This document shows positions 986 to 15,279 of a stretch of DNA of 64,000 bases, piece by piece. Positions within the stretch are counted from its first letter, which is position 1, and every line of letters begins with the position of its first letter. The notes under the pieces were generated by a model. That model was not told the DNA's origin. It did no database searches and saw nothing but the letters and a program-made list of their open reading frames with translations. Location: the NCBI GenBank assembly GCA_044070495.1, contig JBIPSI010000013.1:64001-128000 (forward strand), given 5' to 3'. The position numbers were made by a program, and so were the translations under genes. This DNA is from Spirulina sp. Its GTDB lineage: Bacteria > Cyanobacteriota > Cyanobacteriia > Phormidesmidales > Phormidesmidaceae.

Positions 986-2524
986 ATGGCGGTTAGCAAG
1001 GGCTCATTCCCGCATCGAAGGCGGCGCTGTGCAAGGTTATTCCCTAGGCGAAGCAGCTCTGTGACTCAGCAATCTGTGACTCAACAACTCGACACCCAAC
1101 TCACCCTGACCATTAACGGAGAGCCTGTCTCCGTCGAAGCCCTGTCTCCGGCGATGACCTTGCTGGAATATCTTCGCCTGAGCGGACGGGCGGGCACCAA
1201 GGAAGGCTGCGGCGATGGCGACTGTGGCGCTTGCACCGTGGCCATCATTGGCGAAGGGGCCGACGGCAAACCCCACTACCAGGCGGTGAATAGCTGCCTG
1301 ATTCCCATCGGGGCGGTGGCGGGGCGGCAGGTGTATACGGCGGATGGCATTGCTCAGTGCCGCATTCCCAAAAGTCCCCTCGTCAAAGAACCCGTCACCG
1401 TCGAGCAGTTGCACCCCGTCCAAGCGGCGATGGTGGAAACGGGTGGCTCCCAGTGCGGCTACTGCACTCCCGGCTTCATCATGAGCCTGTTTGCCGCCTA
1501 CTACAACGGCGGGCCAGATGACCTCTCGGTGGAGGGCAACCTCTGCCGCTGTACAGGCTATATTCCCATCCGTCGCGCCGCTGAAATGGTAGCCGCTGAC
1601 ACTCCCCAGGACAGCTTTTCGGCACAGTTGGCCTCGGCCTCTACGGATCTGTTGCCCCTGGCCTACACCGGCCACGAAGAGCAGTTCTACCGTCCCGATT
1701 CCCTCGCTGAAGTGTTGACCCTGCTACAACAGCACCCCAACGCCACCCTGGTCGCCGGAGCCACGGATCTCGGCCTAGAGATGAGCTGGCATCGGCAGCA
1801 TTACCCAATTCTGATTTCCCTAGAAGCCGTCACGGAACTCAAACAGATGCAGAACACGGCGGATTTTGTGGAAATCGGCGCTGCCGTGCCCCTCAGCCAC
1901 ATCGAAACCAACCTGCACGGCATCTTCCCCAGCATGGACGAGATGATCCACTGGTTTGCGGCGCGGCAAGTTCGCAATCGGGCCACCCTAGGCGGCAACA
2001 TCGGCACCGCCTCCCCCATTGGCGACCTGCCCCCGGTGCTGCTGTCGCTCGATGCCACCCTCAAACTGGCTGGCCCCAGCGGTGAACGGGTGATGCCCCT
2101 GGCGGATTTCTTCCTCGGCTATCGCCAAACCCAGTTGCAAGCTGGCGAGGTGATTGTGTCGGTGACGATTCCCAAGGCCACCACTCCCGGCACAGATCGC
2201 CGCCTCGCCCAGTCCTACAAAATTGGCAAACGCGGCACCGACGACATCAGCATCGTCGCCGCCGCCTTTTTGGTGGATGTGGATGCCAACAACCAAATTC
2301 TCCATGCCCGTCTGGGCTACGGGGGAGTTGCCGCCACCCCCGCCCGTGCCACCGAAGCCGAAGCCTTCCTAGTCGGCAAACCCTGGAACCACAGCACCAT
2401 CCAAGCCGTAAAGCCCATCCTGCAAGATGCCTTTACGCCGTTGACCGACCTACGAGGCAGCGCCGACTACCGCAAGCGCCTAGTCGTGAACTTGTTCGAG
2501 AAATTCTTCTCCGAATTCCCGTAG
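986..2524 (+). CDS. xdhA: Xanthine dehydrogenase small subunit (2x[2Fe-2S] + FAD)
   Basis: GTKEGCGDGDCGAC, QCGYCTPGF, GNLCRCTGY, AGATDLG, QVRNRATLGGNI; true start may be GTG 1061 or 1076. Confidence 0.95.
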   Translation: MAVSKGSFPHRRRRCARLFPRRSSSVTQQSVTQQLDTQLTLTINGEPVSVEALSPAMTLLEYLRLSGRAGTKEGCGDGDCGACTVAIIGEGADGKPHYQAVNSCLIPIGAVAGRQVYTADGIAQCRIPKSPLVKEPVTVEQLHPVQAAMVETGGSQCGYCTPGFIMSLFAAYYNGGPDDLSVEGNLCRCTGYIPIRRAAEMVAADTPQDSFSAQLASASTDLLPLAYTGHEEQFYRPDSLAEVLTLLQQHPNATLVAGATDLGLEMSWHRQHYPILISLEAVTELKQMQNTADFVEIGAAVPLSHIETNLHGIFPSMDEMIHWFAARQVRNRATLGGNIGTASPIGDLPPVLLSLDATLKLAGPSGERVMPLADFFLGYRQTQLQAGEVIVSVTIPKATTPGTDRRLAQSYKIGKRGTDDISIVAAAFLVDVDANNQILHARLGYGGVAATPARATEAEAFLVGKPWNHSTIQAVKPILQDAFTPLTDLRGSADYRKRLVVNLFEKFFSEFP

Positions 2525-2675
2525 GGTGGGCACTGCCCACCATCCCCCTGAATTCCCGTAGGGTGGGCACTGCCCACCATCCTCCCTTGGCCCTCACCCC
2601 CAGATCCTCTCCCTGTGGGAGAGGAGAGCCGGAAATAACCATCATCCTCTGTACGGGCGCACCGCAGTGCGCCCC
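2513..2675. repeat. REP-like cluster between xdhA and xdhB
   Basis: Tandem copies of GAATTCCCGTAGGGTGGGCACTGCCCACCATCC (2513, 2550), a CCCTCACCCC..CTCTCCC..GGGAGAG hairpin (2591-2625) and GTACGGGCGCA..TGCGCCC (2651-2674). Confidence 0.85.
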
Positions 2676-2722
2676 AACCCGGCCCCAACCCCTTGCCCCA
2701 TTCGCTTAAGAGGTAATCCCCC

Positions 2723-5047
2723 ATGAGTCCAGTTGGTCAGCGTAAGAGCCACGAAAGCGCCGCCGCCCACGTTAGCGGCACAGCGGTGTATACCGACGAT
2801 CAGCGGGAACCGTTGGGGATGTTGTCGCTGTTTCCGGTGATTTCGCCCCACGTTCACGCCACCATCACCAAGCTAGATCCCAGTCCGGCCCTAGAGGTCG
2901 AGGGTTGCGTGACGGTGCTCACCGCTGCCGATGTGCCGGGGGAGAACAACACCGGGGTAATTGTCCACGACGAAATTTTGCTGCCCACCGATGAGGTCTA
3001 CTACTACGGTCAAGTCGTGGTCTGGGCGGTGGGGGAAACGGAAGCCGCTGCACGGGAAGCGGCGGGTAAGGTGATCGTTGAGTATGAACCTCTACCTGCT
3101 TTAAAGACCGTACAGGAAGCCATTGCCGCCAGCAGCTACCACAACGATGCCCAGTTTATTCGCCGGGGGGATGCCGATGCCGCCATGGCGACGGCACCCC
3201 ACACCTTCTCTGGTGAAGTTGAGGTGGGTGGACAGGATCACTTTTATCTAGAAACCCAGACCAGTTGGGTGGTGCCCGATGGCGAGGGTAATCTTCAGGT
3301 CTTCGCCTCCACCCAACACCCAACCGAAACTCAGGAAATTGTGGCACGGGTACTGGGCTTGTCGAAAAACCAGGTGGTCTGTACCTGTCTGCGAATGGGC
3401 GGGGCCTTTGGCGGCAAGGAATCCCAGGCCAATCCCTTTGCGGCGGCGGCAGCCTTGGCCACCTACAAAACGGGGCGTCCGGCCAGGGTGCGGCTGCGGC
3501 GGCACCACGATATGTTGATCACCGGCAAGCGCCACGGATTCTTGAACCAGTACGAGGTCGGGTTTGACAACGAGGGCAAAATCCTGGCCATGAAAGCCCT
3601 ACTGGTGGCCGATGGCGGCTGGAGCCTCGACCTCTCGCCTCCGGTGCTGGCGCGGGCCATGCTCCATGTAGACAACGCCTACTACATCCCCAACCTGGAG
3701 GTAGAGGGGCGCATCGCCAAGACGAATCGAGTTTCCAACACCGCCTACCGGGGCTTTGGCGGGCCACAGGGGATGATCGTCGCTGAAGAAGTGGTAGACC
3801 GCATTGCCCGTACTTTGAACCTGCCGCCGGACGTGGTGCGCGAACGCAACTTCTACCACGGCACCGGGGAAACCAGCACCACCCACTACAGCCAGGAAAT
3901 CGTCGATAACCGCATCGCCCGCGTCTGGCAGGAGGCCAAGGCCAATTCCAACTACGAGGCTCGACAGGCGGAAATCGCCGCCTTCAACGCCAGCAGCCCC
4001 TACAAAAAGCGAGGGCTGGCCATCACCCCGGTCAAATTCGGCATCTCCTTCAACAAGGTGATGTACAACCAGGCTGGATCCCTAGTGCTGATCTACACCG
4101 ACGGCAGCATTCAGCTCAACCACGGCGGCACCGAGATGGGTCAGGGGCTCCACACCAAGATGATCCAAGTCGCCGCCAAAGCCCTTGGGGTCAGCATCGA
4201 CCGCATTCGCATGATGCACACCAGCACCGACAAGGTGCCCAACACCTCGGCCACAGCGGCCTCCAGCGGATCAGACCTGAATGGCCAAGCGGTGAAAAAT
4301 GCCTGCGAAATTCTGCGGGATCGCATGGCGGCGGTGGCGGTGCGAATGCTGAATCTGGACGCCCCCGAAGACATGGTGTTTGAGGACGACTGGATCTACT
4401 GCCGCACCTACCCCAGCGCCCGGATTTCTTTCGATGAGGTGGTGAAGCAAACCTACAGCGAACGCATCAGCCTCGCCGCCACGGGCTTCTACCGCACCCC
4501 CAACATTTTCTGGGATCCCAAGCTGGGCAAGGGTCGCCCCTTCTACTACTTCGCCTACGGTGCCGCCGTGTCTGAGGTAGAAGTAGACGGCTTTACGGGC
4601 ACTTTCAAGCTGCGCCAGGTAGATATCGTCCACGATGTCGGCGAATCCCTCAATCCCTTGGTGGATAAGGGACAAATCGAAGGCGGCTTTGTCCAAGGTA
4701 TGGGCTGGCTAACCATGGAAGAACTGGTGTGGGATGGGGAAGGTCGCCTCCGCACCTTTGCCCCCAGCACCTACAAAATCCCCACCATCAGCGAAATCCC
4801 CGAAAACTTCACTATCCATCTGCTAGAACGCGCTTCCCAAGACGGTGTCATCTACGGCAGCAAAGCCGTGGGGGAACCCCCCTTCATGTTGGCCATGTCT
4901 GTGCGGGAGGCGATCCGTGCCGCCGTGGCTGCCTTTGGTGATGCCGATTATGTGCCCTTGGGTCTCCCCGCTACTCCAGAGGCGACCCTGTGGGCCATTG
5001 AGGGAGTGCGCGACACGAGTCGGGAAGCTCAGCCTGTGGGTGTCTAA
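2723..5047 (+). CDS. xdhB: Xanthine dehydrogenase molybdopterin-binding subunit
   Basis: QDHFYLE, MGGAFGGKESQ, AYRGFGGPQG, TAASSGSDLNG, SKAVGEPP motifs; follows xdhA. Confidence 0.96.
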   Translation: MSPVGQRKSHESAAAHVSGTAVYTDDQREPLGMLSLFPVISPHVHATITKLDPSPALEVEGCVTVLTAADVPGENNTGVIVHDEILLPTDEVYYYGQVVVWAVGETEAAAREAAGKVIVEYEPLPALKTVQEAIAASSYHNDAQFIRRGDADAAMATAPHTFSGEVEVGGQDHFYLETQTSWVVPDGEGNLQVFASTQHPTETQEIVARVLGLSKNQVVCTCLRMGGAFGGKESQANPFAAAAALATYKTGRPARVRLRRHHDMLITGKRHGFLNQYEVGFDNEGKILAMKALLVADGGWSLDLSPPVLARAMLHVDNAYYIPNLEVEGRIAKTNRVSNTAYRGFGGPQGMIVAEEVVDRIARTLNLPPDVVRERNFYHGTGETSTTHYSQEIVDNRIARVWQEAKANSNYEARQAEIAAFNASSPYKKRGLAITPVKFGISFNKVMYNQAGSLVLIYTDGSIQLNHGGTEMGQGLHTKMIQVAAKALGVSIDRIRMMHTSTDKVPNTSATAASSGSDLNGQAVKNACEILRDRMAAVAVRMLNLDAPEDMVFEDDWIYCRTYPSARISFDEVVKQTYSERISLAATGFYRTPNIFWDPKLGKGRPFYYFAYGAAVSEVEVDGFTGTFKLRQVDIVHDVGESLNPLVDKGQIEGGFVQGMGWLTMEELVWDGEGRLRTFAPSTYKIPTISEIPENFTIHLLERASQDGVIYGSKAVGEPPFMLAMSVREAIRAAVAAFGDADYVPLGLPATPEATLWAIEGVRDTSREAQPVGV

Positions 5048-5106
5048 ACCATTATTCACACATTCTTGGAGCAACTTCCATTAGACTGTGATAGTCATCG
5101 AATTAA

Positions 5107-5237
5107 GAGGGCGTTTGAAAAGGGTTGCCTCAGGTGCGATTGGTCGCTAGATCGGTGCAAATCTACGGGATTTTTGACGACTGAGGCTGACCTCATCGGT
5201 ATAACTTGGGACGAGCTTCGGCTTTTCAAACGTCCTC
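5107..5237. mobile_element. MITE with IS5-like GAG ends
   Basis: TIRs GAGGGCGTTTGAAAAG / CTTTTCAAACGTCCTC, flanked by TAA on both sides (5104-5106, 5238-5240); related partial copy at 38700-38768. Confidence 0.8.
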
Positions 5238-5569
5238 TAAGGGATAAAGCGACAGCAAGCCTTAATCTCTTCTGACTGGTGCCATCATTAATCTCGGCAG
5301 AGTCTGAACACAATCTTGACTAAATGAAATGAAGGTTTATCTAGCCAAGATTGTGCTCGGCATCCGTTTGAGTGACAGGGTGCTCTGTGACGCTTTGGCC
5401 AGGGAAATCGGCAATAGGTCAATCCATCAAATACAGGCTAACTTTGTTCAGGGTAAAGATAGATTAAGCCCCATCGAGTTTTAGTGATATTTGATGATCT
5501 ACCTAACGTTAAACGTTGTCAGATAGGGATCTAAGACCTTTGCCTTTTAGATCGTCTTTGGGGTGAGCT

Positions 5570-7525
5570 ATGTTACACCGTATAGCCAAATTTTTGCCCA
5601 TCGGGAAACCTCAGCAACGGCAGCCGAAAAATATCTTTTACTACCTTCTCATACCGACCGATCAGCCAATTGATCTAACAGAACATCAGTGTCAGATTCA
5701 TAATCCTATACTCCGCAATTCCCTTCAGCATGCGCAAAATCTATTTAATGCTCCAGTAGATCTGTTATGGTTTAATTCTCGTCTTAATAGACTGTGGAAT
5801 CTACATAGCAATCAAGAGATCTCAGTAACAAAATTTCAGAAAAACGGCATTCATTTTCTCATTAACCTTGGCTTTCTCTGCTCCGACAATCCACCTATTC
5901 AAGAAATGTTGACTGGCGTCAACCACCATAAAATCGTTTGGTGTGGATTGCAGAGCAGTCGAGATATTTACGGCTGCGCTTTTATCAAGGGAAAACATAG
6001 GCCAGCCCATTCCATAGCGTTACTAAAGCAGATTATTCATAGCATCACGATAACCATTGATGAGAATATCGAGAATAGCTGGCCCCAAATATGCCAACAT
6101 CTTTTTCTGACGCCTAATACTTCATGTTTTGAGCACTCTCCAGCCCTGAAAGAAATATCAGACTTGCGCAGCAGATCGCTGGCCAATGCTCCTAAGTTTC
6201 TCAATACGGCTATACAAGAACTTCTTTCCTCTTCGCAACCCACACCTGAAACTGACATTAACGCCATCAAGCAAAGATTGCATGGACAGCGATTAAGTTC
6301 TAAAGTACCCTGGATCTTTAATACGCTTCTAAATGAGATTGAATATTATACGGGTTCTGTAGATGTTCAAAGTTTTCCGCCAGAAGTACATCTTTCAACG
6401 ACTGGCTTTTGCAATATAGAATGTCGCTTTTGTACCTATACTCGTTCTGTCGGTCGATTTGAATTTGTTGACGTAGAAAGAGTTTCAAGCCTTGACTGGT
6501 TAAAACAGGTTCAAACGCTAAGACTTCATAGTGGCTTAGGAGAACCTACAACAAATAAAAACCTTGGAGATATCATTGGTTATGTTGCACAAAACTACCC
6601 CCACGTAGGCATTAATTTTTTCACGAATGGACTTAACTTAAATCGGCCAGGGCTGATTGATGCATTAGTCGGCAATGTGCGTTGGATTAATGTTTCGCTT
6701 AATGCGTCAAACCGTGAATCTTGGAAACAGCAATGTAAGATTGATCAGTTTCATCGTGTCTGCCATAATCTGACAGCCTTACTGAATGCGAAGAAGGCTC
6801 GAAAATCGCTCTGGCCTGTTGTCTTTGGTTCTATGGTTATCAACAAGGATAACGTGACAGACCTGCCAGAGATGCCAGCGCTATGCCATCAATTAGGCAT
6901 TGATCGCTTTACCGTCTTTCCATTTTTTGCCTTAGGCTATGGAGGAGACAGTAAATATGGGGCAGAGATGACCCTAGCAACCTGTCGGCAAACCTATGAT
7001 GAACTTTACTGGCCGACCATTGAAGCCGCTCAAAGATATCAGATTTCCATTGAAATGCCGCCCCCCAGCGACCATGCTAAAACGGCTTTTGGTGTAGAAA
7101 TAAGACAGTTTAATGATTTTGCTAGAATCGAGACCAACGAATGGCCAATGGCACGATTTCTCGCTGATTTTATTCCGTTAGAATCTCCTAATCGTTACTG
7201 CCACTTCCTGTGGAGACAGGTTGGAATTGGTAGCACTCATAACTGTGGCCACTCTGAAGAAGAGACCCATTATTTATATCCCTGCATAGGGCCGTTGTCT
7301 GGCTTAGATTTTTCTCGGAAAACTAGCTTTAGATTTCCAGACTCTGATGGTTTTATCGCCCTTTGGAATAACCCTATATTTTCACACCTTCGTAAGGCTC
7401 AACATCAACGGGATGTTTGTCAAGTCTGCGATCTGTGCCAAGCGAAGGACACTCGCGACCCGAATGAATTCCAGTGTTTAGAGGTTGCCACCAAGCAGTT
7501 TAGTCATCAGCACTTAGATCATTAG
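5570..7525 (+). CDS. Radical SAM protein with long N-terminal extension and Cys-rich SPASM/twitch-like C-terminus
   Basis: CNIECRFC (CX3CX2C), GLGEP, FTNG; C-terminal YCHF..YPC..CQVCDLC; AT-rich. Confidence 0.88.
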   Translation: MLHRIAKFLPIGKPQQRQPKNIFYYLLIPTDQPIDLTEHQCQIHNPILRNSLQHAQNLFNAPVDLLWFNSRLNRLWNLHSNQEISVTKFQKNGIHFLINLGFLCSDNPPIQEMLTGVNHHKIVWCGLQSSRDIYGCAFIKGKHRPAHSIALLKQIIHSITITIDENIENSWPQICQHLFLTPNTSCFEHSPALKEISDLRSRSLANAPKFLNTAIQELLSSSQPTPETDINAIKQRLHGQRLSSKVPWIFNTLLNEIEYYTGSVDVQSFPPEVHLSTTGFCNIECRFCTYTRSVGRFEFVDVERVSSLDWLKQVQTLRLHSGLGEPTTNKNLGDIIGYVAQNYPHVGINFFTNGLNLNRPGLIDALVGNVRWINVSLNASNRESWKQQCKIDQFHRVCHNLTALLNAKKARKSLWPVVFGSMVINKDNVTDLPEMPALCHQLGIDRFTVFPFFALGYGGDSKYGAEMTLATCRQTYDELYWPTIEAAQRYQISIEMPPPSDHAKTAFGVEIRQFNDFARIETNEWPMARFLADFIPLESPNRYCHFLWRQVGIGSTHNCGHSEEETHYLYPCIGPLSGLDFSRKTSFRFPDSDGFIALWNNPIFSHLRKAQHQRDVCQVCDLCQAKDTRDPNEFQCLEVATKQFSHQHLDH

Positions 7526-7574
7526 AATGGGCTGATTTCTAATCGATTCACACAAAAAGACAGTCTTGAAAGAT

Positions 7575-9443
7575 TTAGAGAAGAGGAATTTCAATTCTTC
7601 TGTGAAAGTCTTGTTTGCTTGTAGCATGGCAAACTTGATCGAGTGCCATCTCAATGCCATGAACCGTTGTGTGAAACGTTGCTTCGTTATGGGCATAGCT
7701 GGGCAGCATAATACCATTATAGGTAACGATACCTGCCTTAAGGAGTTCTTGATAGTAGAGGGTACGCTTAAGTCTGAGTAGCTCTGGAGAGGGTTCATCA
7801 AACACTAATCCCATCCGAAAGGGCGGTCCAAGGCACTGAGCGCCTACACTACGCTCATAACAGAGAGCGTTAATTCTTGTTTGCAGCTTTTTCCCATAAT
7901 CCCAAATGAAGTCGGCTATGGGCTCTGAACGATAGATTTCAATAGCAGCCTTGGCCGCTGCAAAGGAATACATCTCGCCCTTAAAGGTAGGTCCATAGTG
8001 GGTTTGCCCCATGCTTTTACGAAAAATTTCTGCCCTTCCCACTAGCGCCGAAAGCGGCATACCAGAGGCAATCGCCTTTCCTAGGCAAGCCAAATCGGGT
8101 ACTACACCCGTTGCCCGTTGCACACTTCCCCCTGGATAGCGATAGCCCGTAACGATTTCATCGAAAATGAGAAGGGCACCCGCTTGACGAGTTTTCTCGG
8201 CAATGGTCTGGAGGAACTCGGTGCTAGCATCTTGGAAATGTCCCTGTATTGATTGAGCTGGGCCTGCGGGTTCCAGCATGACCGCCGCTAGGTCATCTCG
8301 ATAACGTTCATAGAGGCAATTGAAATCCTCTAGGTCGTTGAATTTAAAGGCATGGATTAAGGCTTCAGGTCGATCTGGAATACCCGTAAACTCAAAGCCC
8401 ATACGCTCTACCCAAAAGTCTTGCCAGCCGTGATAACCGCTACAGAGAATAATCCTTTTGCCGGTATAAGCCCTCGATAAACGAGCTGCGACTGTACAAA
8501 CATCGGAACCATTTTTCCCAAATACAACCATTTCTGCACAGGGAAAATCATCTATGAGCATTTGGGAAACTTCCATTTCCAGACCATAGGGAAATGGCGT
8601 CACGGCACCCGTATCTAAAACTGATCGAATTGCATCCTGTATGCGCTGATCAGCATAGCCTAAGAGATAGCACCCCCAACCCATGACGTAGTCAATATAG
8701 GTCTGATTTTGAGAATCCCAGATATGACATCCTTGAGCTTTGGAGACAAAGACAGGAAAGGTATTTCCTGATCGTCCTTGCCAGATACCCCCAGTGGGTT
8801 GGTAAAACCACGGGTTGACCTGCCTTGATAGGCTGACTAACATTGAGGTTTCACTCGGATTGCCTTGGGTCACCCATACCGAAATTCTCAGCGGATCTGC
8901 CCCCTGGTCAGAAAATCGAGTAACGTTTTGCTGAACTAGATCAACAATTAATTCGTGGTCGCCCACTACATTGGGAATCGTTATTGAAAAATAAATCTCC
9001 ACACGCTCTCCTGGAAGAACTTGCCCTCGGGGAAAAGGAAGGGTCAACAGGACTTGGCGATCAAATTGAACAAATACATTCACTGGCTGGGTAGCATCTG
9101 TGGATAGCCAGGGAAAATTACCCTTATTTTCTAGGGCAACCCAAGCGCCATAGGTTTGACCAGCCATCACCTGATCTGGGATATCACTATCGATGAAATT
9201 AACCCTGTAACGATTCTGTCTAGATGGCGACTCCGCAACGCTTTCAAAGCTATCGATTTGAATCGGGCTTTCGATCAAGTTTTTCCTAAAATTATCTGGG
9301 TTTATTGCCGCTAGTTTTGTGACAACAATTTTAGACCTAAAGGCTTTTATGATTTGCTCAAAAAAAGAATGCTTCATGATCGGCCCTTCAGTTTGGTTAA
9401 CAGCAAGCCATGACTTCCATTGAGGGCAGCATAATATCACCAC
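7575..9443 (-). CDS. Class III PLP aminotransferase (GSA-aminomutase-like) with N-terminal Ig-like domain
   Basis: YIDYVMGWG, FGKNGSD, GYHGW, LIFDEIVTGYR, PDLACLGKAIASG; alternative ATG at 9377. Confidence 0.9.
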   Translation of the reverse strand: MVILCCPQWKSWLAVNQTEGPIMKHSFFEQIIKAFRSKIVVTKLAAINPDNFRKNLIESPIQIDSFESVAESPSRQNRYRVNFIDSDIPDQVMAGQTYGAWVALENKGNFPWLSTDATQPVNVFVQFDRQVLLTLPFPRGQVLPGERVEIYFSITIPNVVGDHELIVDLVQQNVTRFSDQGADPLRISVWVTQGNPSETSMLVSLSRQVNPWFYQPTGGIWQGRSGNTFPVFVSKAQGCHIWDSQNQTYIDYVMGWGCYLLGYADQRIQDAIRSVLDTGAVTPFPYGLEMEVSQMLIDDFPCAEMVVFGKNGSDVCTVAARLSRAYTGKRIILCSGYHGWQDFWVERMGFEFTGIPDRPEALIHAFKFNDLEDFNCLYERYRDDLAAVMLEPAGPAQSIQGHFQDASTEFLQTIAEKTRQAGALLIFDEIVTGYRYPGGSVQRATGVVPDLACLGKAIASGMPLSALVGRAEIFRKSMGQTHYGPTFKGEMYSFAAAKAAIEIYRSEPIADFIWDYGKKLQTRINALCYERSVGAQCLGPPFRMGLVFDEPSPELLRLKRTLYYQELLKAGIVTYNGIMLPSYAHNEATFHTTVHGIEMALDQVCHATSKQDFHRRIEIPLL

Positions 9444-9448
9444 AAAAC

Positions 9449-11017
9449 CTAAGATGCTGGACTTGCTACAGTCAAATCATCTGTGACCTCGATGATCGAT
9501 GAGTCAATTTGAGTGGAGCCTATAGGATGCTCATGGGAATCATCAACGTTTACCAGAACAAATTGAACTTTATATAATCCTTTAGGCCAGCTTGGAGTAA
9601 GATCGAAGGTGAGATGCGTTCGCGTTCCGGGATGAACATCGTGGCGTAGAGAGACGGATTTCTCTAGTTGTCCATTGATGAGAATATTTAATCTTGTTTT
9701 TGGGAACGTACTTTTGAGCCAGGTTTCTTGCCCAGCATTATGGAGATAAAATTGACAGGAAACAGGGTTAGAAACCGAGACGTGTTTCGGAATAGATCGA
9801 CTAACAACCTGAACTCTAAAGTCTCCATCAATCAAACTCGTGTTTAATTCTGCTGGGAGTTTTGGAAGAAGTTTTTTATTCCTCAGGTCTTGCATGTGGC
9901 TGTGAATATCAATCAAGCTATTAGGAATATTTATGCCATAGGGACAGTGGCAGGTCTGCTCTTCGCACGTACGACAAACGGCTGAATCTTGAGGATGGAG
10001 GTGAAAATACCGACATTCATCGATGGTTTCAAAGGTTTCTGAAGGGTAGTGGTTTATGTAAGCGTCACGAAATAGCCAAGATACGGGCAGAGATTGACTA
10101 CATAATGTATCGCAGTAACCGCAGCGACTACATAGGGAAGTCTGCATTTCCTGAACGCTGGTTTGCACAACCAGGTTGCTCTCTAAGGGGTCGCTTGAAG
10201 TTTCATAACCAGCCAAGGCGTTCTCTTCTGCTTCAGTGATGGAGGCTGTCCCTGGTACAACCCCACAAACTCCAGGTTGGTTGAGGATAAATCGTAAGAC
10301 TTGACTAGCGCTTAGGGGCGTAGACTCCGTTGAGAATCGATGCCTGGAAGGAAAGGCTTTGCCTGGAACTAGCAAGCCTCCGGCCAAGGGCTTCATGATT
10401 AAGAGACTAATCTGATGTTGTTGCGCTAGGGGAAAGATATCACGGCGAGTTTCAGGGATATTTTCAAAGGCTTTGCTGCTGTCAGGATGGTAGGACAGCA
10501 GGTGAAAGCCAAGGGGATTGTAGGCCAACATTAGTGCATCAAAAACACCTGATTTTATTAATTTCTTCAGGTAGTCTGGATTGCCATGGGTCGTACAAAA
10601 GATACTACCTAGTCTTCCCTCTTCTTTCTTAGTAATCAGAAAATCGATAATGCCGTCAGGCTCCCACACGGGTTCTTGAAGATACTCACGGTCATCAATA
10701 CAGGCAATGCCAAACACCTCAAGTCGATCTTTCTTGAATTTTCGACAGGTTTCCTCAAATAAGTACTCAAAATGAGGGCGATCCCCATAGCCCTGGGTAA
10801 ATACTAGAACCGATTTCTGAGCTTCAGCAATGGCTTGGGCAACTAGGTCGTCAGTCCCTTCATAATCTGGGGCGGTATGAACCCAATTAACTCCTAACTC
10901 AAAGCCTCGCTTGAGGGTGTCGATGGCCTGCTGTTCTGGTACTAAACGTAGCTGACAGGTGCCAAAACCAACGGTGCTGATCCAAAGATCTGTTTTTCCA
11001 AGGCGACGATACCGCAT
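9449..11017 (-). CDS. Aldo/keto-reductase-fold protein with two Fe-S Cys clusters and C-terminal Ig-like domain
   Basis: MRYRRLGKTDL..VGFGT, IMKPLAGGLL, CSRCGYCDTLC, CRTCEEQTCHCPYGINIP. Confidence 0.88.
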   Translation of the reverse strand: MRYRRLGKTDLWISTVGFGTCQLRLVPEQQAIDTLKRGFELGVNWVHTAPDYEGTDDLVAQAIAEAQKSVLVFTQGYGDRPHFEYLFEETCRKFKKDRLEVFGIACIDDREYLQEPVWEPDGIIDFLITKKEEGRLGSIFCTTHGNPDYLKKLIKSGVFDALMLAYNPLGFHLLSYHPDSSKAFENIPETRRDIFPLAQQHQISLLIMKPLAGGLLVPGKAFPSRHRFSTESTPLSASQVLRFILNQPGVCGVVPGTASITEAEENALAGYETSSDPLESNLVVQTSVQEMQTSLCSRCGYCDTLCSQSLPVSWLFRDAYINHYPSETFETIDECRYFHLHPQDSAVCRTCEEQTCHCPYGINIPNSLIDIHSHMQDLRNKKLLPKLPAELNTSLIDGDFRVQVVSRSIPKHVSVSNPVSCQFYLHNAGQETWLKSTFPKTRLNILINGQLEKSVSLRHDVHPGTRTHLTFDLTPSWPKGLYKVQFVLVNVDDSHEHPIGSTQIDSSIIEVTDDLTVASPAS

Positions 11018-11290
11018 GGCAGGAATCCCATCGACGCTGCTATCAATACCCTAGACACTTTGCTAGGTAAGTGCTAAAGCCCTTGATCTCTCATTGACTA
11101 GATCAGGGCTAAATATGCCTGAGATTTGGATTTTACTGTTGTTCCTCAAAAAACTGACTGAGGTGTTGTTTTCTGTAACATTGCTGAGCAGAACTTAACA
11201 GCTTTACATGGCAATTGTCCATGCCACTCCGTCGGTGGGACGAATTAGAGCCTGTGATCCAAGGTGTATAGCCGATTAGTGTGATTAATT

Positions 11291-11439
11291 TATAGCGGTT
11301 CTCGATAGCATGAGATACACCACTGCTGAGTTCTAGATCCCCCCAGTGCCTAGTAGTCTAAGTTCACGCTATCCCCCCCTTTTTAAGGGGGGCAGGGGGG
11401 ATCATCGCCATGTACTTGACCCGTGTGAAATCCGCTATA
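11291..11439. mobile_element. TA-ended MITE (IS630-like ends) containing a CCCCCCTTTTTAAGGGGGG palindrome
   Basis: Ends TATAGCGG / CCGCTATA; closely similar copy at 39155-39302. Confidence 0.8.
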
Positions 11440-11526
11440 GTGCGATTAATACTAATGAGATTCATCTAAACGGTATTTCCCCGAAGGGGTGAAGGGCCGT
11501 AATCGGGATAGAATCTGGGCCTTGAC

Positions 11527-12345
11527 CTAGAGGAGTTGGTGGGCCAAGATCACCGCCCAGATGAGCACCAACACCTCTGTCCACTCTACGGTGGCTCCAT
11601 AGGTATCCCCCGTATGACCACCCAGGCGACGATTCAGATCAAACCCTACCAGCATGGCTAGAACTAGTCCCCCAGCCCAAACCCCCAGCGCCAAGAAGCC
11701 CTGATCGGGGTCGATCCCGATCCATAGGCCCAGGGCTAATACAGTCGCTCCTAGGCCGCTCATCACCGCTGGGAGTGGTTGCAAATGGGGTTTGTGGAAG
11801 GCTCCCTTGCCTGCGGCTTTGAGGTAGGAATAGCGAAGGATAGCCACCACCTGCCCCCACCGTCCCCAGAGGGCCGCTAGGATGATGCTTCCCGGTCGCC
11901 CTCCGACTAAATCGGCTAGGGCTAGGGTTTTGAGCCCCAAAATGGCAATGGCTGCCATGACTCCAAAGGCTCCGCTGTGGCTGTCGGCCATCACCGCTAG
12001 CCGCCGGTTGGGATCTTGTACGGCTAGCCCATCGGCGGTATCCATGGCCCCATCCAGGTGCAGCCCGCCCGTCAGCCACAGCCACAGCCCCACCACCAGA
12101 GCACTACACAGCAGGGTTGACAGTCCGAGGCGTTGCAAGGCCCAGTCTACTCCGGCGAGACCTAGGCCCAGCCCCAGGCCAATCCACGGTGCTAGGGCGG
12201 CAATGCCTTCAAACTGGGGCTTCCACCACCGAGGCAGGGGCAGAATCGTATAGAAAATAATGGCCCCTCCCAACTGTGCCCATCCACGGGCTAGGGCGGC
12301 CAAGACTGAGCGGTGACGGGACTTCAAGGACAGCGCTCCTACCAA
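11527..12345 (-). CDS. cobS: Adenosylcobinamide-GDP ribazoletransferase (cobalamin synthase)
   Basis: TGGLHLDGAMDTADG, MADSHSGAFG, GGHTGDTYGA; multi-TM. Confidence 0.95.
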   Translation of the reverse strand: MVGALSLKSRHRSVLAALARGWAQLGGAIIFYTILPLPRWWKPQFEGIAALAPWIGLGLGLGLAGVDWALQRLGLSTLLCSALVVGLWLWLTGGLHLDGAMDTADGLAVQDPNRRLAVMADSHSGAFGVMAAIAILGLKTLALADLVGGRPGSIILAALWGRWGQVVAILRYSYLKAAGKGAFHKPHLQPLPAVMSGLGATVLALGLWIGIDPDQGFLALGVWAGGLVLAMLVGFDLNRRLGGHTGDTYGATVEWTEVLVLIWAVILAHQLL

Positions 12346-13611: not shown

Positions 13612-15279
13612 CTAGTCGGAGTTGATAAGCGCTTCGACGGTAGGGGGCAGGGTTCTGACCTGGTGTCGGCGGAAGGGATCGGCACTCACGGCTTCGACGT
13701 AGCTGGCTTGGAGGAAGGGGGCATAGGCTTGGTTGCCAGCACCGTAGACCTGGGTAAACGCCACAATCAAGGATCGGTTGACCCCTCGCGTCATGCCGAG
13801 GGCTTCATCAATGCCCTGCTCTAGATTTTGGTCGAAGTCGAGGAGTTGGCTGAGGGATCGGGTAAATTCGGGGCCGTGGGAGGTGTTATCCGCCAGGTAG
13901 AGGTAGCGGTCGGGGGTGGTGAGCCAGCCAAAGGCCGCGACCTGCTGGGGTACCACGGGGGCTACCACGTCTAGGGCACCGCCGGAAATCACCACGGGGC
14001 GCTGAATGGCGGCCATCCCCTGGGGGCCAAACAAATTAGAGACGGTGGCGAAGGCCATCACCAGGGCCACTCGGTCATCCTGAACGCCCGTTTCGCCAAG
14101 TTGTTGGATCACATCGGGCTGCGACCGTAGCTCTAGGGCACGACATTCCAACAGCAGGGCCGCATCGGCCAGGAGATTGGCCTCGAGATCGCAGCGCTGG
14201 GCCAAGCGCTCGAAGTCGATGGTGGCTCCGGCCAGGGCGAGGGCCGTGTAGCCACCGAAGGAGTGGCCTGCGACCACCACGCGATCCAAGGCAAGGCGAC
14301 CGCCAAAGTCGGAGGCATTGCGGCGGCTGAGTTCATCTAGCAAAAACCGAATATCCAGGGGCCGATCTAGAAATTCCTGGGGACTAAAGCTTTCTCGCAC
14401 CAGCCCGCTCAGCATGGCCTGCTGCTGGGCATAGTTGCTGCCAATGTGTTCCGGTAAGGCCACCACAAAACCATGGGAGGCCGCGTGGGTGGCGATATCG
14501 AGAAAGCTTTGGGGCCGATCCCCCAGCCCGTGGGAAAGCACCAGCACGGGGATGGGGCCGGGAAGATTGGCGAGATCCTGGGGCACGACCACTTCCACGG
14601 GGTAGGTGCGATTGCGGGAGGGATCGGTGAGGCTTAGGGAAAGCTGACGACTACCGTGGGGGCCGGGTTGGATGATGTCGGGCAGGCGGCTGAGGTCGAT
14701 GGGCTGCTGGGCGGCCTCCTGCCGCGCCTGGGATCGCACCGCCTCCACCACCACCTGGGTAGTTTCGGCTTCGTCGAGGGTTTGCTGGGCATTCCGCAGC
14801 AGTTGGGCCAAGTCTAGGCGCAGGGTGCCGGTGGGAAAGTGGCGGATTACGTCTAGGAAGGAGAGGGTGCCATCCTCGGCGGCGGCGGCAATCAGGGCGG
14901 ATCGGAGGGCCTGCTGGCCGTTCAACCGAGCATCCGTGCGAACCACCTTGCCCAAAAACAGCAGGGATCGTTCCCCCATGGGATCGTGGAACCACTGACT
15001 GAGGGGAATCAGATCCACCTCTCGGCTAGCGTTGAGACCCGCCCGAAACCCCTCTTTCTGGTCGGCACTGAGGCGACGCAACAGCGGAGCTAATTCAGAA
15101 TTGGCCTCATTGCCCTCGGCAAACTCCACCAGGGCCGATACGGGCACCGAACGACTAAAGGGGCCGAACTCCAAAACGACGGTTTCCGCCGCCTGGATGG
15201 CAGCCTGTCCCCCTAGCCCCACGCCCACCGTTGCTGCCAGCGTTCCCAAAACAGACTTGCCCAGCCGCCCTATGCCCAT
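13612..15279 (-). CDS. Secreted alpha/beta hydrolase with N-terminal DUF1400-like domain
   Basis: Signal peptide, VLSHGLG, GHSFGG nucleophile elbow. Confidence 0.9.
   Translation of the reverse strand: MGIGRLGKSVLGTLAATVGVGLGGQAAIQAAETVVLEFGPFSRSVPVSALVEFAEGNEANSELAPLLRRLSADQKEGFRAGLNASREVDLIPLSQWFHDPMGERSLLFLGKVVRTDARLNGQQALRSALIAAAAEDGTLSFLDVIRHFPTGTLRLDLAQLLRNAQQTLDEAETTQVVVEAVRSQARQEAAQQPIDLSRLPDIIQPGPHGSRQLSLSLTDPSRNRTYPVEVVVPQDLANLPGPIPVLVLSHGLGDRPQSFLDIATHAASHGFVVALPEHIGSNYAQQQAMLSGLVRESFSPQEFLDRPLDIRFLLDELSRRNASDFGGRLALDRVVVAGHSFGGYTALALAGATIDFERLAQRCDLEANLLADAALLLECRALELRSQPDVIQQLGETGVQDDRVALVMAFATVSNLFGPQGMAAIQRPVVISGGALDVVAPVVPQQVAAFGWLTTPDRYLYLADNTSHGPEFTRSLSQLLDFDQNLEQGIDEALGMTRGVNRSLIVAFTQVYGAGNQAYAPFLQASYVEAVSADPFRRHQVRTLPPTVEALINSD

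Follow-up and report, generated by a model that had tools for sequence, protein, structure and literature searches.

A transferable three-gene cassette encoding a radical SAM enzyme, a class III aminotransferase and an AKR-fold Fe-S protein

The locus described here raises the question of whether three adjoining genes that differ in base composition from their surroundings form a unit and, if so, what that unit might make. It lies in a stretch of 64,000 nucleotides from Spirulina sp. (GenBank assembly GCA_044070495.1, contig JBIPSI010000013.1, positions 64,001 to 128,000 of the forward strand). This whole stretch was analysed; we call it the window, and coordinates without a locus name refer to it. 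The three genes encode a radical S-adenosylmethionine (SAM) enzyme, a pyridoxal phosphate (PLP)-dependent class III aminotransferase and a protein with an aldo-keto reductase (AKR) fold and predicted Fe-S sites. A sequence-only reading of this DNA had proposed that they are a mobile module that oxidises, transaminates and reduces its substrate to an unusual amino-sugar or related product. We find that the trio is a conserved and transferable cassette, and tentatively favour a role for it in modifying nucleotide-linked sugars.

A conserved and transferable cassette

In 500-nt sliding windows the GC content is 0.39–0.50 throughout positions 5001–11500 and 0.58–0.63 in the flanks on each side, and the three genes have a GC content of 0.445 versus 0.583 for the remainder of the window. 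The AT-rich island noticed previously is thus evident, and we take its extent as 5.05–11.5 kb of the window. The radical SAM open reading frame (ORF) occupies 5570–7525 on the plus strand (651 amino acids, aa). The other two ORFs are on the minus strand: that of the aminotransferase at 7575–9443 (622 aa from a GTG at 9443) and that of the AKR-fold/Fe-S protein at 9449–11017 (522 aa). Because the homologue in a sister genome aligns from residue 23 of the aminotransferase and the Atlas record begins there, its most likely start is the ATG at 9377, which gives a protein of 600 aa (7575–9377, minus strand). The radical SAM gene converges on a linked pair, as had been described, but the gene that adjoins it is that of the aminotransferase, not that of the AKR.

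A scan of one genome per species yielded 21 loci (given L numbers below), 19 of which contain full relatives of the radical SAM protein at 36–84% identity; the other two have unrelated radical SAM genes that match the core only, and were discarded. With co-occurrence within 10 kb scored by phmmer on ORFs and tblastn on DNA, the aminotransferase is present in 16 of the 19 family loci and a full-length AKR/Fe-S gene in 13; the 19 include two contigs ending at the radical SAM gene (L010 and L019) and one ending inside the aminotransferase (L014). In L013 the aminotransferase is present and the AKR was not found on its 7.9-kb contig. The AKR of an Acidobacteriota metagenome-assembled genome (MAG; L012, with L031 as a near-duplicate) is a 200-aa remnant at 1251–1853 of that locus, consisting of only the second Cys motif and the FW region described below, and adjoins intact aminotransferase and radical SAM genes. 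Neither partner gene lies within 10 kb of the radical SAM gene in a Gemmataceae genome (L011), and the same genome encodes a fused AKR–FW–aminotransferase protein on another contig (L063). The open frame of this fusion spans 1507 aa, while a start at the in-frame Met that immediately precedes the AKR domain would shorten the protein to approximately 1090 aa. The longer frame is probably over-extended, this being a high-GC ORF, and its apparent 430-aa N-terminal extension has no family match and no similarity to the radical SAM protein. A second fusion (1074 aa) directly follows the radical SAM gene in a Vicinamibacterales genome (L005), and AKR–aminotransferase fusions are thus known in two phyla. 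Metagenomes added six family members among the 35 loci listed, two of them duplicating genome loci; L029 and L032 contain the full trio.

The gene order is not fixed. In the window and most loci, the radical SAM gene is convergent with an AKR-then-aminotransferase pair, and in L012, L015, L017 and L018 the three genes form a co-directional operon in the order AKR, aminotransferase, radical SAM. Identities to the three window proteins co-rank across 15 loci (Spearman 0.75–0.84; the loci are related, so p-values overstate this), and clustering of neighbouring genes gave no fourth gene family in more than three loci. The three genes are therefore a conserved co-occurring cassette, and the proposal that they be treated as a unit holds. 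As that reading had also supposed, the trio corresponds to no named pathway, insofar as NCBIfam scores lie far under all curated cut-offs and no description of the trio was found in the searchable full-text literature, outside which subscription journals largely fall.

In a sister genome (G465; locus L002) the same island lies between the same two genes, namely xdhB on the left (xdhA/xdhB, 986–5047) and cobS on the right (11527–12345, minus strand), with DNA identities of 82% for the trio, 91% for xdhB and 85% for cobS. The ratio of nonsynonymous to synonymous divergence (dN/dS) between the two genomes is 0.165 for the radical SAM gene, 0.173 for the aminotransferase and 0.114 for the AKR, and dS is of the same order in the trio (0.58–0.91) as in xdhB (0.44) and cobS (0.53). 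The trio is therefore kept under purifying selection, and it is probably older than the split of the two species. The source genome encodes photosystem reaction-centre proteins, a trait shared by Synechococcus alone among 14 control genomes, and we accordingly regard the host as a cyanobacterium. Only two of 53 genomes of the genus, the source genome and G465, have the radical SAM gene, which is absent from 400 other genomes drawn from the phylum and from 16 genomes of other families of the same class. The distance between xdhB and cobS is large in five congeners with good assemblies; the island thus lies at a synteny break, where a clean insertion site is not definable.

Judging from record titles and source names, carriers occur in Nitrospinota, Desulfobacterota/Deltaproteobacteria, Acidobacteriota, Planctomycetota, Verrucomicrobiota and Alpha-, Beta- and Gammaproteobacteria, and another MAG is a further cyanobacterial carrier; by record titles, the cassette has spread over at least eight phylum- or class-level groups including Cyanobacteria. 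The unit of transfer is exactly three genes, of which Nitrosomonas sp. Nm34 (L018) is a clean example. Its AKR, aminotransferase and radical SAM genes have GC contents of 0.589, 0.588 and 0.591, compared with 0.37–0.52 for the genes on either side, including 0.45–0.50 for the adjacent gmd, epimerase and phosphomannomutase (PMM) genes. In the window and L002 the deviation is in the opposite direction (trio 0.44 versus 0.57–0.58). This trio-specific composition, together with the patchy distribution, bears out the claim of mobility. A tblastn search of 50,697 phage and 72,556 plasmid records gave no match.

Two copies have settings of their own. The Nm34 trio (L018:5375-11497) is inside a polysaccharide locus (gmd, epimerase, PMM, WcbI and GSCFA) flanked by insertion sequence (IS) transposase fragments. 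In a Xanthobacteraceae MAG (L017:1923-17799) the trio lies within an apparent integrative element with genes for a prim-pol, a D5_N/DUF5906 helicase, a resolvase, an ATP-dependent DNA ligase and a tyrosine integrase.

The island had also been described as bounded by miniature inverted-repeat transposable elements (MITEs). The repeat on its left (5104–5241, 138 nt) has 17-nt terminal inverted repeats (5106–5122 and 5222–5238, 94% complementary) and at least 40 further genomic copies at 88–99% identity; short, non-coding, with inverted ends and many copies, it qualifies as a MITE. The repeat on the right (11291–11440, about 150 nt) belongs to a different family with at least 40 further genomic copies at 75–98% identity, and has the length and copy number of a MITE. 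Neither is assigned a strand. Both are genome-wide elements and do not define the ends of the island, because L002 has neither of them beside its copy of the island. The spacers of the sister genome have no match to those of the window except for 46 nt beside xdhB, and nothing in the right spacer (11018–11526) matches L002. The repeats are thus real, but they bound no mobile unit.

Copies of the two families are spread over the 74 contigs of the assembly, several at contig ends, and probably broke the assembly. A hairpin with 23-nt arms (83% complementary) and a 7-nt loop is located upstream of the radical SAM gene (5306–5358). We rejected this hairpin and the MITEs as functional parts of the cassette, since the spacers are not conserved in L002. 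An Rfam scan of 4800–11800 found no RNA family at E up to 1, and predicted promoters and terminators were not more numerous than in shuffled sequence. No RNA run is listed as carrying the island; the runs that match it, three in all, are DNA metagenomes, and two of these contain about half of the island's words. A Uma2-family putative endonuclease (96–746) and a protein with DUF1400 and an alpha/beta-hydrolase domain (13612–15279) are ordinary neighbours, unrelated to the cassette.

The three proteins

The radical SAM protein consists of an N-terminal domain (residues 1–265), a core (about 266–500) and a twitch-like tail (about 500–651). The Pfam model Radical_SAM (PF04055) matches residues 276–435 only, at 49.4 bits versus a cut-off of 29.5, and the three Cys of the SAM cluster motif (C281-x3-C285-x2-C288) are invariant in 73 sequences, in agreement with the initial assignment of this 651-aa protein. 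In the tail, C544, C572, C620 and C623 are invariant in the same 73 sequences, and C439 is at least 90% conserved. The SPASM motif comprises seven C-terminal Cys and two auxiliary clusters. We rejected assignment to the SPASM subclass because only four tail Cys are invariant and all SPASM NCBIfam models are far under cut-off. The four Cys fit one cluster, so the tail, previously called SPASM-like, appears to hold a single twitch-like set of auxiliary-cluster Cys. The family is small: 173 proteins reach an E of 0.001 or better in a word-indexed search, and no score below 474 bits occurs among the 120 of them that are listed. The best NCBIfam score of the island protein is 66.8 bits versus a cut-off of 380.

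An AlphaFold (AF2) model built from the 73-sequence alignment has a pLDDT of 92.6 and a pTM of 0.92. When this model was compared with 48,161 PDB representatives using VIA-align, predicted structural neighbours included SuiB (Z 21.9), BlsE (Z 21.5 over 282 residues, root-mean-square deviation (rmsd) 3.4), SkfB (20.0), DesII (19.5), MoaA (19.1), anSME (18.9), CteB (18.0), viperin (17.9) and PqqE (17.4), with BtrN at rank 26 (12.3), followed by AprD4 (9.4) and SpeY (9.2). Foldseek results agree. The modelled core thus appears to belong with the SPASM/twitch group, a relationship that by itself has no power to separate peptide from nucleotide-sugar substrates. Among these neighbours, BlsE, DesII and MoaA act on nucleotide-linked substrates.

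The N-terminal alpha/beta domain (5570–6364, plus strand) has no Pfam or NCBIfam match, in accordance with the roughly 260 unassigned residues noted initially. A profile built from 19 loci was searched against 1.84 billion representatives and matched 63 proteins, 27 of which have E values of 1e-30 or less. Apart from fragments, all of the 63 are radical SAM fusions of about 600–700 aa, so that the domain is specific to this radical SAM family. Modelled alone (pLDDT 88.2), it resembles, at low significance, TarI, IspD, a DUF2064 'nucleotide-diphospho-sugar transferase', ArnC/GtrB and RmlA in the PDB by Foldseek (best E 2.6e-3); a CofC-like protein by VIA-align (Z 6.0, 141 residues, rmsd 4.3), with GMPPB, glucose-1-phosphate cytidylyltransferase, IspD, MobA and CMP-sugar synthetases as other weak matches; glycosyltransferases and a GlmU-like protein in the viral library BFVD (best E 4.1e-3); and CofC, DUF2064, IspD and GT2 proteins in the ESM Atlas (TM-score 0.38 at most). 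The fold comparison that had been suggested for this region therefore gave top matches that are all nucleotidyl- or glycosyltransferases, but all weak. Because the weak matches in four libraries are unanimous in fold class, a diverged nucleotidyltransferase/GT-A-like fold can reasonably be taken as a lead, though not as more than that. Conservation is highest at A214, E217, S244, W248, N251 and E258, in the helices that immediately precede the CX3CX2C motif.

Some homologues are larger. P0083, P0087 and P0090 (922–957 aa) have about 300 extra N-terminal residues, an extension with no Pfam match and, in P0087, no similarity to the aminotransferase. P0243 is matched twice by the N-domain profile, which suggests a tandem duplication of this domain.

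The aminotransferase belongs to class III: Aminotran_3 (PF00202) matches residues 225–527 at 137.6 bits versus a cut-off of 30.5. Its closest solved relatives by sequence are glutamate-1-semialdehyde (GSA) aminomutases (2cfb, E 3.9e-48), with whose LGK and DEVMTGFR its PLP lysine motif LGK and its DEIVTGYR align, so that its description as GSA-aminomutase-like was apt. The next solved relatives are D-phenylglycine, beta-phenylalanine, aminopentol and aminoglycoside C-6' aminotransferases, and the C-6' aminotransferases 7lm0 and 9au3, which are among the PDB sequence matches, provide a precedent for class III enzymes acting on sugar carbonyls. The best NCBIfam match (NF004856) scores 233 bits versus a cut-off of 486. 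The protein is not a HemL, an identity that would have undone the original proposal: TIGR00713 gives it 189–190 bits (190.1 in the direct check) versus a cut-off of 527.3, and the true hemL of this genome (598.4 bits) is elsewhere, on contig C15. HemL (2cfb) shares the PLP Lys and the Asp motif, but the island protein has an extra N-terminal extension of about 200 aa.

This extension includes an NBR1-FW/CARDB-like immunoglobulin (Ig) domain (residues 60–205 in the 622-aa numbering; 8829–9266, minus strand), whose look-alikes in the Atlas carry PF16158 (NBR1 FW) and CARDB. Structural look-alikes of the domain (TM-score 0.72–0.81 by query) are fused to O-antigen ligase, DUF2079, SpoIID, a galactose-binding domain and methyltransferases, and serve as leads only. 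PF16158 itself has no match at E 0.01 among the window proteins or in the whole genome, and scores 21.5 and 24 bits on the two fused homologues, below the cut-off of 28. The homologues in L012, L015, L017 and L018 contain two copies of the domain. The FW domain of eukaryotic Nbr1 is reported to be a protein-recognition module (PMC9233695).

The third protein comprises a TIM barrel (residues 1–285), a Cys region and a C-terminal FW-like Ig domain (about 395–500). Aldo_ket_red (PF00248) matches residues 16–267 at 58 bits versus a cut-off of 24. Eight Cys, arranged as CX2CX2CX3C (296/299/302/306) and CX2CX4CXC (348/351/356/358), are invariant in 35 sequences. Pfam reports no Fer4 domain in the island protein itself, and the two motifs align with the Fer4_9/Fer4_17 dicluster region of a paralogue in the same genome. 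The FW domain of the aminotransferase has a homologue in the C-terminal 130 residues (phmmer E 1.1e-9 versus the L018 AKR), and PF16158 is precomputed on five of the 120 AKR homologues listed. When the radical SAM protein and the Fe-S/FW half of the AKR were modelled as a complex, the score was 0.00; this prediction, run without controls, is no evidence either way.

Canonical AKRs have an Asp-Tyr-Lys-His tetrad. Compared with the solved AKRs 9yeb and 1ynp, the fold is kept but three of these four residues are replaced in the island protein: Asp by an invariant H47, Lys by an invariant Q75 and His by A105/C106, while Tyr is retained (Y52). A 'VVPGTAS..EAEEN' stretch in the C-terminal part of the barrel, which contacts the nicotinamide cofactor in canonical AKRs, is also retained. 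Since the canonical Asp, Lys and His are replaced, the 'reduce' step envisaged in the sequence-only reading is doubtful, and an electron relay or a novel active site appears more likely. The paralogue mentioned above (L064, G000:C34:3500-15500; ORF 5135–6430 of that locus, minus strand) is a canonical AKR with a 4Fe-4S dicluster, recognised by the Pfam AKR and Fer4_9/Fer4_17 models. It aligns over residues 1–383 at 24% identity, with Glu/Tyr/Lys/His at the catalytic positions where the island protein has His/Tyr/Gln/(Ala-Cys). The genes around it encode, among others, a CHAD-domain protein and a protein with lumazine-binding domains, and do not include a radical SAM gene.

A candidate role in nucleotide-sugar modification

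We annotated 169 neighbouring ORFs in 18 independent loci with Pfam and found sugar-nucleotide or glycosyltransferase (GT) genes near the trio in five loci, and single such genes in two more. In L018, the gmd gene (GDP-mannose 4,6-dehydratase) is immediately downstream, followed by an epimerase/reductase, PMM and WcbI. L015 (Variovorax rhizosphaerae) has GT1, a GMD-like gene, a rhamnosyl O-methyltransferase, a sugar C-methyltransferase, an epimerase and rmlC; L005 has GT2, GT4 and two methyltransferases upstream and GT2 and GT4 downstream; L006 has two GT1 genes; and L010 has an NAD epimerase and GT2 immediately upstream. PMM is about 5 kb away in L008, and in L011 a GFO/IDH/MocA sugar-type dehydrogenase directly follows the radical SAM gene and a polysaccharide-export protein is encoded. 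A sugar gene is an immediate neighbour in three to four of the 18 loci, a raw count that is suggestive of a link with glycans and falls short of proof. Consistent with the earlier remark that GSA-like aminotransferases occur in surface-glycan loci, a gene annotated as GSA aminomutase is present in a Legionella O-antigen locus (PMC3694923).

We tentatively favour, at somewhat less than even confidence, the hypothesis that the trio is a plug-in module for radical oxidation or dehydration and transamination of a nucleotide-linked sugar, for which we infer the substrate, the order of steps, the part played by the AKR and the fate of the product as follows. The nucleotidyltransferase-like N-domain of the radical SAM enzyme would hold a nucleotide-linked substrate, most plausibly a nucleoside diphosphate (NDP)-sugar and perhaps a GDP-sugar. 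The enzyme would cleave SAM and take a hydrogen from an unactivated sugar carbon. A carbonyl would result, through a two-electron oxidation of the BtrN type or through the kind of radical dehydration or deamination known from AprD4, DesII and BlsE. The class III aminotransferase would then turn this carbonyl into an amine. The AKR-fold/Fe-S protein, which the fusions in two phyla suggest is physically coupled to the aminotransferase, may pass electrons to or from the clusters of the radical SAM enzyme via its two predicted [4Fe-4S] sites; alternatively, its non-canonical active site may process a second carbonyl. The FW-type Ig domains common to the aminotransferase and the AKR probably tether the enzymes, and the product would diversify the surface glycan of each recipient host.

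Several observations weigh against this hypothesis. No glycan gene is within 10 kb in the other 11 of the 18 loci, nor in the window, and no exporter, glycosyltransferase or regulator accompanies the trio in the neighbour clustering. The N-domain matches reach a Z of 6.0 at most, which is within noise given that the typical best Z of unmatched models is 7–8, and the domain lacks a strictly conserved DXD motif. The peptide-modifying enzymes SuiB, SkfB, anSME, CteB and PqqE score as high against the radical SAM model as those acting on nucleotide-sugars do. NDP-sugar aminotransferases usually belong to the DegT family and not to class III, and plain NAD(P)H-dependent carbonyl reduction by the AKR is doubtful. 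Thus, of the oxidise-transaminate-reduce amino-sugar module first proposed, the transferable trio stands and the glycan link has support in some loci, but most loci and the window lack glycan genes, the reductive step is questionable, and the order of steps and the substrate class are extrapolation.

A few pathways to antibiotic sugars are known in which a radical SAM enzyme is paired with an aminotransferase, and we compared the trio with these. BtrN and BtrS, which act in the formation of the 2-deoxystreptamine of butirosin, follow the same logic of radical oxidation of a C–OH group followed by PLP-dependent transamination, and BtrN has a single auxiliary-cluster Cys set like the one predicted for the island enzyme. 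However, BtrN is only about 250 aa, has neither an N-domain nor an AKR/Fe-S partner, and is not linked to the island protein by sequence searches; BtrS is of the DegT family rather than class III. In the TDP-desosamine pathway (DesI/DesII/DesV) a radical SAM enzyme is also paired with aminotransferases, and BlsE, of blasticidin S biosynthesis, is a radical SAM enzyme that acts on a nucleotide-linked sugar; DesII and BlsE are among the best predicted fold matches. These systems lack an Fe-S AKR, FW domains and a GT-A-like N-domain, the DesII NCBIfam model scores 16.6 bits on the island protein versus a cut-off of 450, and the aminotransferases of the Des pathway belong to a class other than class III. 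In C3' deoxygenation of apramycin, the radical SAM diol dehydratase AprD4 works with a dedicated NADPH-dependent carbonyl reductase, AprD3, on an aminoglycoside sugar; the island AKR, however, lacks the canonical Asp, Lys and His, and AprD3 is not known to be an AKR-ferredoxin. By the tests made, the trio belongs to none of the BtrN/BtrS, DesI/II/V, AprD4/D3 and BlsE pathways. Uncharacterised COG1453-type AKRs with a C-terminal 4Fe-4S dicluster have the same barrel and two Cys motifs as the island AKR, which differs in its added FW-like Ig domain, its altered catalytic positions and a putative Fe-S domain that Pfam does not recognise. It is possible, though we hold this with less confidence than the general hypothesis, that the trio constitutes an undescribed route to an amino or deoxy-amino nucleotide sugar, in which a radical SAM enzyme with a nucleotide-binding N-domain of its own would form a carbonyl at an unactivated carbon, an AKR scaffold devoid of its hydride-transfer residues would act as an Fe-S electron relay, and an FW-tethered GSA-type aminotransferase would introduce the amine, the three genes moving together between phyla and altering the surface glycan. 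In a bolder variant, the product may be a nucleotide analogue directed against phages.

The alternative that survives best, although we regard it as unlikely, is that the substrate is not a sugar but a small metabolite, cofactor, pterin or nucleotide, so that the trio would serve salvage, catabolism or cofactor tailoring; the radical SAM enzyme would have the AKR/Fe-S protein as its dedicated redox partner, and an amine would be added or removed by the aminotransferase. The absence of glycan genes from most loci is in keeping with this, as are molybdenum- or corrinoid-related neighbours in three independent settings (xdhAB and cobS in the window, CobO and MoeA beside the AKR in L016, and a molybdopterin oxidoreductase in L020). 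Among NCBIfam models, those for a tungsten-cofactor maturase and MoaA match the radical SAM protein best, at scores that fall far short of their cut-offs, and the weak N-domain matches include the guanylyltransferases CofC and MobA. However, the molybdenum and cobalt neighbours vary by locus and none is conserved, no transporter accompanies the trio, and Rfam finds no riboswitch in the island or in eight related loci (the latter at gathering score). Furthermore, the ordinary AKR-ferredoxin paralogue in the same genome has no radical SAM neighbour.

It is far less probable that the trio is an anti-phage defence system, in which a viperin-like radical SAM enzyme would, together with the aminotransferase and the AKR, make an amino- or deoxy-nucleotide chain terminator. 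Viperin is a predicted structural neighbour (above), the N-domain resembles a nucleotide-binding fold, and the distribution is patchy and horizontal with anomalous GC content, one copy (L017) forming part of the apparent integrative element described above. PADLOC also gives prokaryotic viperin (pVip) matches of 34.3 and 30.8 bits, but these cover the generic radical SAM core only. We rejected pVip as an identity for the protein, since NF038283 scores 24.1 bits versus a cut-off of 180. In addition, PADLOC has no matches for the aminotransferase or the AKR, the Pfam-annotated neighbours contain no recognisable defence genes, the phage and plasmid records gave none of the trio, and several copies are embedded in polysaccharide loci. 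The least probable reading, and marginally the weaker of these last two, is that the radical SAM protein acts as a maturase for peptides or proteins, of the SPASM/twitch RiPP (ribosomally synthesised and post-translationally modified peptide) or anSME type that modifies a peptide or its partner enzymes: it would account for the peptide-modifying enzymes among the top fold neighbours and for a helical linker (about residues 204–262) that aligns with N-terminal parts of SuiB and SkfB, but only four auxiliary Cys are invariant instead of the SPASM set, Pfam matches no protease, exporter or RiPP recognition element (RRE)-type domain, and no small ORF is conserved within 1.2 kb of the trio in 17 loci, apart from the window/L002 pair, whose DNA is near-identical.

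Cultured carriers, namely Variovorax rhizosphaerae, Nitrosomonas sp. Nm34, Caballeronia sp. DA-9 and Paraburkholderia edwinii, allow direct testing of the nucleotide-sugar hypothesis. If it is correct, the island enzyme would represent a new subfamily of radical SAM enzymes, equipped with a novel domain for holding the substrate, and its partner would provide the first function for a variant of the uncharacterised AKR-ferredoxin architecture. The cassette would then be a new and easily transferable means of altering bacterial surface sugars, and would bear on phage receptors and serotype diversity.

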